In this document: positions 6,412 through 7,770 of the stretch, piece by piece
How positions within the stretch are numbered: position 1 is the stretch's first letter
Layout of the letters: each line of letters opens with the position of its first letter
From: a virus
Taxonomy: Duplodnaviria; Heunggongvirae; Uroviricota; Caudoviricetes
DNA: 33,187 nt
Direction: 5' to 3' (one strand)
Virus record (IMG/VR): IMGVR_UViG_2529293223_000010
The notes under the pieces: generated by a model
The model's input: only the letters and a program-made list of their open reading frames with translations
What the model was told of the DNA's origin: nothing
Database searches by the model: none
Position numbers and translations under genes: made by a program

Positions 6412-7079
6412 GTGTCATTTTGCGCGGCTGCCAGTGTATTGAGCAAATTACCAACACCGGAAAAATAAGGCGAATAAGTGCTTTCTGCCGCCTTTAACTC
6501 TCCTGGAGTTGCCTGCAATTCATCAGCATTTTTCTGTTTCTCTACAACATTACGAGCCATCATGCCAAAGCCAAACGGCCCGGCAACGCCCATAACCGCA
6601 AGTTTTGTCCCCCACGATACGGTGGTTTTAAACAGGTTGTTTAATCTCGAAGTGGTCGTCCGTAGCGTAGAATTGATCTGCTTGTAAGTTTTCAGCGTCT
6701 GTTTGGCGTTTTTCCCCAGCCCGCTGAGGTACTTATCAAACATCGTTTCGCCGCGACCTTTATAGTTGCTCACCAGCGAATCAGGTGTTTTCCCGCTGCC
6801 AACAAAGCGCCATTTTTCATCCCTTAAACGTCCATCAGTGGAAGCAGCCAGAACTGGCGCGGGTGAAGATGGTTTCCTGGGAGCCTGATTGGCTTCTCCG
6901 CCTGTGGTTGTCTGCCAAGAGCCACCTCCCGGACCGGTATTTGAAGGTATTTTAAGCGGCGTACCGGCAGGGCCAATCATCAGTCCGTTGCGATACTTTT
7001 CAAATATCGCCTCAAGCCGCCTGAGGTGTTCTTCATTAACATCCAGCGTCAGAACTGGCATCTGGTTACCAGCCATCAC
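6412..7079 (-). pseudogene. putative tail tape measure protein, N-terminal fragment truncated by IS600 copy 1
   Basis: ORF 6399..7079 runs directly into the IS600 terminus at 6411; position after the tail chaperone; hydrophobic GVAGPFGFGMM segment. Confidence 0.45.
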
Positions 7080-7770
7080 AATACTCCTGCGGGATTTTTG
7101 AATTTGAGCAGCTCACGAAACTGAGCTGCTGTTTTTACATTTAGGCCGGAATCTGCACAGATGTCTCTGAATCCGGCTCCGGCTGAGTAGTCGAGGATGT
7201 CGCTGATGACGTGTTCGCCGTCGCGCCAGAACTGGCGGCTGATTTCAATGTCGGCAATGAAGCGATCCATTCCGTAAGATTCAATAACGAGCATTGAGTG
7301 CTCCATACTCCATTGACCACATCCATAGTCCCCTTCGCCTGCTCCGGTGAATTTATCGACGAGACGCATGTAAAAAAAATGAGCTCACCCGCCACTTCAT
7401 CCAAATCAATGATTTCACGCTCCAGCGCCATATCGAGAGGGATTGTGTCGTAGCCTTTACCCTCCACTGGGTAAACAAGGTTTGCCAGGCGAATGACCTC
7501 ATTAACAAGTGTATTACGGACCCCTTTATCACCTTCCCAGATATTAGAATCACGCGAGATCCGCTCCAGCATCAAAAAAGCGATACGCGGACCCGCAACG
7601 ACGCCAAGACCTTCTGAAAAAATGGCAGAAAAAGTTTTACTCAGAATGAAGAAATGCTCTTTAAACACCTCTTTGCTGATCGGCGTGGCATGGATCCAGC
7701 CATTACCCTTTTCTGTCCGGACAGGAATAATCAGGTTTAAATTTCGCGCGATTTTCATACCAGATCCCAC
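7076..7770 (-). CDS. putative tail assembly chaperone encoded in two overlapping frames (7141..7770 and -1 frame 7076..7369) that meet at a T8 run (7372..7379): programmed -1 frameshift or inactivating indel
   Basis: Frame-0 product looks protein-like only up to ...EVAGELIFF; -1 frame is open from 7384 and encodes a protein-like 97-aa continuation; slippery T TTT TTT at the junction; position between tube and tape measure genes. Confidence 0.4.

Follow-up and report, generated by a model that had tools for sequence, protein, structure and literature searches.

A probable programmed −1 frameshift on T_TTT_TTT in an unannotated family of phage tail assembly chaperone candidates

The stretch of DNA analysed here, referred to as the window, is the 33,187-nucleotide IMG/VR virus record IMGVR_UViG_2529293223_000010 (Caudoviricetes). 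On its minus strand, directly before a tape-measure gene, it carries a candidate tail assembly chaperone gene that is divided between two reading frames at a run of eight T residues (T8). It is very probable that a programmed −1 frameshift of the G/GT type, taking place on the heptamer T_TTT_TTT within this run, gives rise to two tail chaperone products of 205 and 227 amino acids. This reading draws its comparative support from the conservation of the site at synonymous positions, from constraint in two frames, from the existence of homologues for both products, from the lack of a start for the −1 frame and from the synteny of the locus. A preliminary description, made from the sequence of the window, had left the choice between a programmed frameshift and a lesion caused by gene decay.

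The maximal frame-0 open reading frame (ORF) extends from a GTG at 7770 to 7141, with the TAA stop codon at 7143..7141. The likelier start is the ATG at 7758..7756, which overlaps the TGA of the upstream gene as ATGA. Because of this overlap, and because orthologues in RefSeq and GenBank are annotated as a 618-nt coding sequence of 205 aa, the latter is taken as the likely true length; the short product also matches phrog_11810 from end to end (E 1.9e-89). The phase of the run is ATT TTT TTT ACA (..ELIFF TC..), and the codons following a slip of one base would be TAC (7372..7370), ATG and CGT. In the −1 frame there are 102 open codons between 7384 and a TGA at 7078..7076, or 97 if counted from the ATG at 7369, and the stop of this frame overlaps the ATG of the tape-measure gene (7076..7074) as TGATG. 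A conceptual fusion joins residues 1–129 to the 98 residues of the −1 segment and has 227 aa. The T8 and frame coordinates of the preliminary description, including a −1 frame of 97 residues open from 7384 to 7076, were all borne out by the sequence, as were the 76 further frame-0 codons that it had placed between the phenylalanine pair and the TAA.

A run of this kind is by itself not beyond chance, with five T8 runs observed in the window against 4.5 expected. What is far beyond chance is that the relatives keep the run, its phase and both ORFs. Across 145 cluster representatives, all pairwise less than 50% identical, F129 is invariant (145/145) and position 128 is F in 138, Y in six and S in one, so that on this alignment no element of the family is better conserved than FF. 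Within 22 sampled lineages the codons of the site are TTT in 42 cases out of 44, with a single TTC and a single TAT as the exceptions; at Phe positions elsewhere in these genes there are 47 TTT and 62 TTC (43% TTT). Genes with a GC content of 62–64% have TTC at all or nearly all of their other Phe positions, yet they too have TTT TTT at the slip site. The codon before the site ends in T in 20 of the 22 lineages, with a varying amino acid (V, T, A, C or I), and the T-ending share among other V, I and T codons is 27%. This is the signature of selection acting on the nucleotide heptamer and not on the protein alone.

An exhaustive profile-free search with the 205-aa protein gave 694 related clusters (at 50% identity) at E ≤ 1e-3 and 537 at E ≤ 1e-10. 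A scan for related loci with P0128 as the query found none. The distant loci that were compared number 28, at 28–45% identity, and consist of seven metagenomic contigs, 17 IMG/VR contigs and four cultured phages (Klebsiella vB_Kpn_Chronis, Yersinia vB_YenM_21.09, Pantoea PdC23 and Shewanella vB_Sb_QDWS). All 28 contain a −1 ORF, reaching about 98–156 codons past the slip site, with a homologous domain whose motif in the alignment is YGxxxF(L/I)A(D/E)(V/I)(D/E)..(L)D(W/Y)xxxxGF....(F/Y)RxR. The sequence NNT TTT TTT followed by A is found at the aligned FF in 26 of them. Since the cultured phages form working tails, the split arrangement must be a functional one. In the GC-rich metagenomic relatives L079, L080 and L083 the short product is 228–242 aa long and the −1 part 126–156 codons, because the shared overlap contains low-complexity insertions, which extend the two frames together.

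Closer to the window, 76 loci reaching down to 66% amino-acid identity were compared, comprising two complete phage genomes (Escherichia phage Rac-SA53 and ‘Actinobacillus’ phage pPE4), two E. coli chromosomes and 72 IMG/VR contigs. These bear on the suggestion that an ancestral single ORF of about 227 aa, with a T9 run, has lost one T in a prophage that is degraded, with four insertion sequence (IS) copies and a truncated tape-measure gene. A T8 at the same position (gene nt 380–387), a 205-aa frame-0 ORF and a −1 ORF of 102–107 codons occur together in 73 of the 76, complete phage genomes among them. The split two-frame arrangement as such is present in 74 of the 76, in intact prophages as well as in the complete phage genomes. 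The frame-0 ORF of L059 has 210 aa owing to a five-codon insertion, L069 has TTT TTT TC (T7C), which still conforms to X_XXY_YYZ with both ORFs kept, and L076, an exception among the close loci, is broken elsewhere.

Single-ORF versions with T9 do exist, as the suggestion of decay would have it, and are rare. The only T9 run among the 76 loci is that of L023 (IMGVR_UViG_2896595138_000001; 3380..3388), which has all 227 aa in one ORF and matches the window at 700 of the 700 other positions compared; this identity marks its T9 as either a change of recent date or a homopolymer sequencing error. More than 1000 contigs in the protein database have the 205-aa form, as against four proteins of 226–227 aa, and of these four only P0001 (6 contigs) is of the T9 type. 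The remaining three, P0002–P0004, attain 226–227 aa through other indels near the slip site. Homopolymer sequencing errors may account for the single-ORF variants, or these may be natural ‘fusion-only’ mutants. The 731 nt of the window locus match four complete E. coli genomes at 100% identity and are likewise 100% identical to the copy in E. coli EC11. The window is collinear with the EC11 prophage at 99.4% identity over 7.1 kb, and in the part of that prophage that was examined the tail genes run without interruption. The distant cultured phages share the split arrangement, and frame 0 beyond the run is conserved and predicted to be folded. With the split recurring in close loci, distant loci and cultured phages, and with a −1 ORF that shows purifying selection, decay is rejected as the origin of the two frames, and the loss of a T from a T9 ancestor is to be regarded as extremely unlikely. 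The comparison of orthologues that the preliminary description had proposed, a single ORF of about 230 aa or a G/GT pair, thus comes out in favour of the split pair (74/76 close and 28/28 distant loci), and of its two alternatives it is the programmed −1 shift that agrees with the conserved heptamer, with a homologous and selected −1 ORF and with the presence of the arrangement in cultured phages and intact prophages.

Constraint in the two frames was assessed through the pairwise ratio of nonsynonymous to synonymous differences (pN/pS) over 18 divergent sequences. Upstream of the site the ratio is 0.21 for frame 0 and 2.1 for the −1 frame, which serves there as the off-frame control. In the part read only in the −1 frame, after the frame-0 stop, it is 0.32 for the −1 frame and 0.91 for frame 0, now the off-frame control. 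Within the overlap the more constrained frame is frame 0 in the 5′ half (gene nt 388–501; 0.60 for frame 0 and 0.86 for −1) and the −1 frame in the 3′ half (gene nt 502–615; 0.89 for frame 0 and 0.39 for −1). Synonymous divergence is lowered across the overlap, to 0.24–0.41 compared with 0.71 upstream, and codon-position variability agrees with these values. The amino-acid sequences read from the overlap in either frame are conserved. The pattern indicates that the −1 ORF is under purifying selection.

The continuation of frame 0 beyond the run had been viewed differently at the outset. The preliminary description considered the frame-0 protein genuine only as far as ELIFF and counted the 76 additional codons, which it characterised as low-complexity and Ser/Thr-rich, against a programmed shift. 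Neither point survives the comparison with distant homologues, which have 180–240 aa (median 192) and align to query residues 1 to ~185, past the slip site, with W152, S167 and L168 nearly invariant. An AlphaFold2 prediction of the short product from a 33-sequence alignment has a predicted local distance difference test score (pLDDT) of 86.5 and a predicted template modelling score (pTM) of 0.78, and consists of one predicted domain spanning residues ~8–170, with pLDDT ≥90 out to ~170. The slip site falls within a helix (119–135) that is followed by a second helix (138–152), a short strand and a third helix (161–167); residues 171–205 are disordered. The characterisation as a low-complexity Ser/Thr-rich tail therefore holds for residues 171–205 and not for residues 130–170, which are conserved and predicted to be folded. 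The 76 post-slip codons are thus genuine, forming a true portion of the short product over about 40 residues, after which comes the Ser/Thr tail. The sequence of this tail has no detectable constraint, yet it is open in every lineage and ends in a conserved Pro. Random synonymous recoding of the −1 protein leaves frame 0 open in 6–39% of trials, which suggests selection for the openness of frame 0, although the lineages are related and the recoding test is not decisive.

The distance between the slip site and the YG motif of the −1 domain, read from the sequences, is 31–36 codons in all 28 distant loci. Pattern scoring gives exactly 32 in 21 of the 28, 31 and 36 in two others, and five low values that are spurious early matches. 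A near-constant spacing is to be expected if the nucleotides of the overlap also encode the structured residues 130–170 of the short product. The proposition that the shift branches inside a folded domain, rather than lengthening an already complete chaperone, is evenly balanced between being right and being wrong. Under it, the shared residues 1–129 would be followed by two alternative, individually selected C-terminal parts drawn from the same 228 nt, namely two helices with a disordered Ser/Thr tail, or a linker with a T-like domain, and both the near-constant YG spacing and the absolute conservation of FF would result from dual coding. If true, few dual-coding overlaps linked to a chaperone frameshift in phages would be longer or more widespread than this one (at least 694 clusters), and the short product would have a function that the long product lacks.

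A further question is how the −1 domain is expressed, since it might be made as a separate protein of 97 aa from the ATG at 7369, with no fusion being formed. This ATG, right after the run, is kept throughout the close clade, and the 97-aa ORF has sometimes been called as a gene (16 database proteins and phrog_14324). No Shine-Dalgarno sequence is present at a normal distance from ATG 7369, the nearest candidate being a GGTGA 14 nt upstream that is not conserved, and in 27 of the 28 distant loci there is no ATG between the slip site and the YG motif, several of them having no ATG, GTG or TTG at all. Independent initiation cannot for these reasons be the general mechanism, and it would in addition leave the synonymous-site conservation of TTT TTT unexplained. 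The production of a separate 97-aa protein in place of a fusion is consequently very unlikely, which leaves fusion through the slip site as the only route shared across the family.

In the frameshift mechanism proposed here, most ribosomes would stay in frame 0 and produce the 205-aa protein, with its fold of residues ~8–170 and its disordered Ser/Thr tail. A minority, with the P and A sites both occupied by tRNA-Phe, would slip back by one base on U_UUU_UUU and would continue in the −1 frame. The resulting long product of 227 aa would be made up of residues 1–129, a variable linker of ~30 residues and a conserved domain of ~65 residues. By analogy with the G and GT proteins of lambda, the shared N-terminal part may bind the tape-measure protein whilst the −1 domain may recruit tube subunits, and how often the slip occurs would determine the ratio between the products. 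That the shift occurs and with what frequency, that it originates at the ribosome rather than in transcription, and that the products act as chaperones, we infer from sequence.

The same 227-aa protein could be produced in another way, if RNA polymerase slipped on the T8 run and added one U, leaving the transcript to be translated in the ordinary manner. The sequence of the product would be identical to that of the ribosomal −1 product, the run is homopolymeric and eight long in most lineages, and polymerase slippage on runs of nine A or T is well documented in bacteria, Shigella among them (PMC5009743). It is, however, the in-phase heptamer that is conserved and not the length of the run. The run is reduced to T7 in six distant loci (L077, L081, L087 and L101–L103), to T7C in L069, to T6 in L079 and to T4 in L082, all of which are shorter than the documented nine-nucleotide runs. 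Polymerase slippage as the source of the long product is thus improbable, and it is also conceivable that the ribosomal and polymerase mechanisms could both contribute.

Several observations weigh against the proposed ribosomal frameshift and its two products. The heptamer is weakened in two distant lineages, which have GTG TTT TTT and GTA TAT TTT. The −1 part of the long product has a pLDDT below 50 in an AlphaFold model of P0001, which is unreliable in that part, and the long product would lack the last two helices of the fold predicted for the short product, a situation that differs from lambda. In E. coli, shifting on U_UUU_UUU is reported to be much less frequent than on A_AAA_AAG (PMC5009743). 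RNAalifold revealed no conserved stimulator downstream of the site in the 18 divergent sequences (−2.3 kcal/mol, five pairs, one compensatory change), and the 103 nt downstream in the window fold no better than shuffled sequences (z = +0.25), so that the stimulatory structure for which the preliminary description advised a search downstream of 7372 did not materialise. Folds of the downstream region computed from single sequences differ among the relatives. A low, unstimulated shift frequency would fit the proposed frameshift, because only a small fraction of long product is needed; shifting in lambda G/GT is itself low-level (PMC5009743).

Two other sequence elements were considered as possible parts of the recoding device. 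A Shine-Dalgarno-like stimulator upstream of the site is unsupported, as the GGTGA located 6 nt before the heptamer tracks Gly-Glu codons and becomes GGCGA or GGGCA in relatives. A 9-bp hairpin in the part of the mRNA read only for the long product (Table 1) has a stem that is kept in 54 of 54 distinct close-clade sequences, synonymous positions included, with a varying loop and no compensatory changes. It is absent in the distant relatives. Being confined to the close clade and having no compensatory changes, it was rejected as part of a general recoding mechanism and may not belong to the recoding device.

The order of the locus, consisting of the sheath gene, a 147-aa gene, the chaperone candidate and a long gene with an SLT or VanY domain, is the same in the window and in every relative examined (Table 1). 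The 147-aa gene directly follows the sheath gene in all of them, and the long gene after the chaperone candidate is the longest tail gene in every locus examined. Intact orthologues of the truncated tape-measure gene encode 657–693 aa, some being annotated with an SLT domain. The tube and tape-measure identities were assigned by position, length and domain, and not by membership of a named family. The preliminary description had placed the chaperone candidate between a tube and a tape-measure gene; synteny supports this position, whilst the 147-aa gene has no tube annotation. The PHROGs to which the putative tube gene and the N-terminal part of the tape-measure gene (6399..7079, minus strand) belong, phrog_6566 and phrog_7694, are both listed with unknown function, and the sheath gene is the sole functionally annotated tail-module gene among those examined here.

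Table 1. Features of the chaperone locus and of other parts of the window
Feature	Coordinates	Strand	Details
Frame-0 ORF, short product (G-like chaperone candidate)	7141..7758	−	205 aa; from ORF list and sequence
Slippery heptamer T_TTT_TTT (X_XXY_YYZ)	7372..7378	−	Inside the T8 run 7379..7372
−1 segment (T-like part)	7076..7372	−	98 codons and stop TGA 7078..7076; phrog_14324, E 2e-62
Dual-coding overlap	7144..7371	−	228 nt, equal to 76 frame-0 codons; from codon-position variability and pN/pS per frame
Hairpin of 9 bp (AGCAGCTCA-N6-TGAGCTGCT)	7107..7130	−	In the mRNA part for the T-like product only, ~10 nt past the stop of the G-like frame; ~−15 kcal/mol
Upstream gene, putative tail tube by position only	7755..8198	−	147 aa; phrog_6566, unknown function
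Tail sheath gene	8210..9547	−	445 aa; phrog_205 ‘tail sheath’, E 3.5e-53
Truncated tape-measure gene	6408..7076	−	~223 of ~690 codons; matches phrog_7694 positions 1–223 of 675
IS3-family element	5191..6408	−	orfA HTH_Tnp_1, orfB rve; cuts the tape-measure gene at ~6408
Further transposase ORF copy	15224..16042	+	272 aa
Further transposase ORF copy	25802..26620	+	272 aa
Further transposase ORF copy	30811..31629	−	272 aa
IpaH-type effector gene	1676..3391	+	Intact, 571 aa; Pfam LRR_TTSS, LRR_4 and NEL E3-ligase domain, E 2e-76

In the window the chaperone cassette itself is intact. Homology to the intact EC11 prophage (L003) ends at 6408, where an IS3-family element adjoins, the blastn match being collinear over 13505..6408 of the window. 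Directly past the IS are tail-fibre-like genes, so that the window lacks both the remainder of the tape-measure gene and the genes for the baseplate. With a cut tape-measure gene and no baseplate genes after it, the cassette is probably idle in this prophage. The four transposase ORF copies of 819 nt are nearly identical to one another (816–819 of 819 nt), and the IS copy that was examined has an A_AAA_AAA −1 site of its own at 6096..6090, from which the −1 frame runs on into orfB. The IpaH-type gene, which is located beside the prophage remnant and points to Shigella or enteroinvasive E. coli as the source, and the IS copies fit a degraded prophage of such a host.

Two sets of database entries among the relatives have labels that seem out of place. 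L002 (PP818812.1, Actinobacillus phage vB_Apl-pPE4) has 92.5% DNA identity to the E. coli/Shigella prophage module over 1.3 kb, and pPE4, deposited as infecting Actinobacillus pleuropneumoniae (Pasteurellaceae), may be an E. coli prophage contaminant. L004 (NZ_CP026085.1) and H32–H38, labelled as E. coli DH5alpha, contain a relative of the module at 84.8% identity, the same as LY180 and KO11FL. No such prophage is known from K-12 derivatives, and the DH5alpha strain labels may be wrong.

Taken as a whole, the genes appear to form a large, unannotated family of a well-known recoding kind with an unusual geometry, in which a mid-domain branch is combined with a dual-coding overlap of 228 nt. A simple rule, that NNT TTT TTT A at the invariant FF is to be joined in the −1 frame, would provide two gene families, found in many enterobacterial prophages and in environmental phages, with a function. 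The family would also indicate that a chaperone frameshift can be located more than 200 nt from the in-frame stop, where predictors trained on short distances would miss it, and it would offer a natural system for asking which role of the short chaperone’s C-terminal third the fusion has to do without. As for the window, the T8 site is not to be read as a sign of gene decay, which here consists of the IS-mediated loss of the 3′ part of the tape-measure gene and of the baseplate genes.

Searches of the databases yielded no significant match to a named chaperone family among the Pfam Phage_TAC_* families, the lambda gpG family or solved structures. Neither the window protein nor any of 33 family members had a hit in Pfam, and the Protein Data Bank (PDB) gave no sequence match. 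In BFVD there are weak matches (E 0.1–1), several of them to a tail assembly chaperone or to a ‘pre-tape measure frameshift protein G’. Both PHROGs of the locus, 11810 and 14324, are listed as ‘unknown function’. In the records inspected (two RefSeq E. coli chromosomes and six GenBank phages) the 205-aa ORF is a ‘hypothetical protein’ and neither the −1 ORF nor the shift is annotated, and no description of the frameshift was found in the literature on this phage group.

Frameshifting of the G/GT type is widespread in long-tailed phages (review PMC5009743), and the best-known case is that of the lambda chaperones G and GT (Levin, Hendrix and Casjens 1993; Xu, Hendrix and Duda 2004, 2013, 2014, as summarised in PMC5009743). 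The features of this class that are found here are the position upstream of the tape-measure gene, a conserved in-phase heptamer and a coding −1 ORF that abuts the tape-measure start. As in lambda, the gene lies immediately upstream of the tape-measure gene and the second ORF abuts it, the two products would share their N terminus with the longer one arising through a −1 shift on X_XXY_YYZ, there is no evident RNA stimulator and the −1 ORF has no start of its own. Unlike lambda, the proteins have no detectable similarity to G/GT in sequence or fold, the heptamer is U_UUU_UUU rather than G_GGA_AAG, and the tail is of the contractile kind. The lambda slip is near the 3′ end of G (PMC5009743), whereas here it would be at 63% of the short gene and 228 nt before the stop, so that the long product would be without 76 residues of the short one, two predicted helices among them.

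In phage P2 the heptamer is likewise T-rich (T_TTT_TTG), and the shift takes place close to the end of E. The present pair resembles E and E+E′ of P2 and other myovirus chaperones (Xu et al. 2004 set, cited in PMC5009743) in belonging to a contractile tail and in being located between the tube and tape-measure genes. The IS3-family orfA/orfAB system, present in the same window, is similar in that a −1 shift on a homopolymeric heptamer leads to a fusion protein, and different in that the proteins are unrelated and the shift controls the production of transposase.

The usual location of the slip near the end of the gene is not seen in this family, the site being at codon 129 of 205 and predicted to lie inside a helix. 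Owing to its distance of 228 nt from the in-frame stop, the long product would be formed without the C-terminal third of the short one. In the SEA-PHAGES and Xu sets of annotated tail-chaperone frameshifts, which are of the same recoded kind, the mean distance from the slippery site to the in-frame stop is 26 and 36 nt, respectively (PRFect paper, PMC10885494), and the PRFect predictor mostly fails when the stop is as far away as the 228 nt found here.

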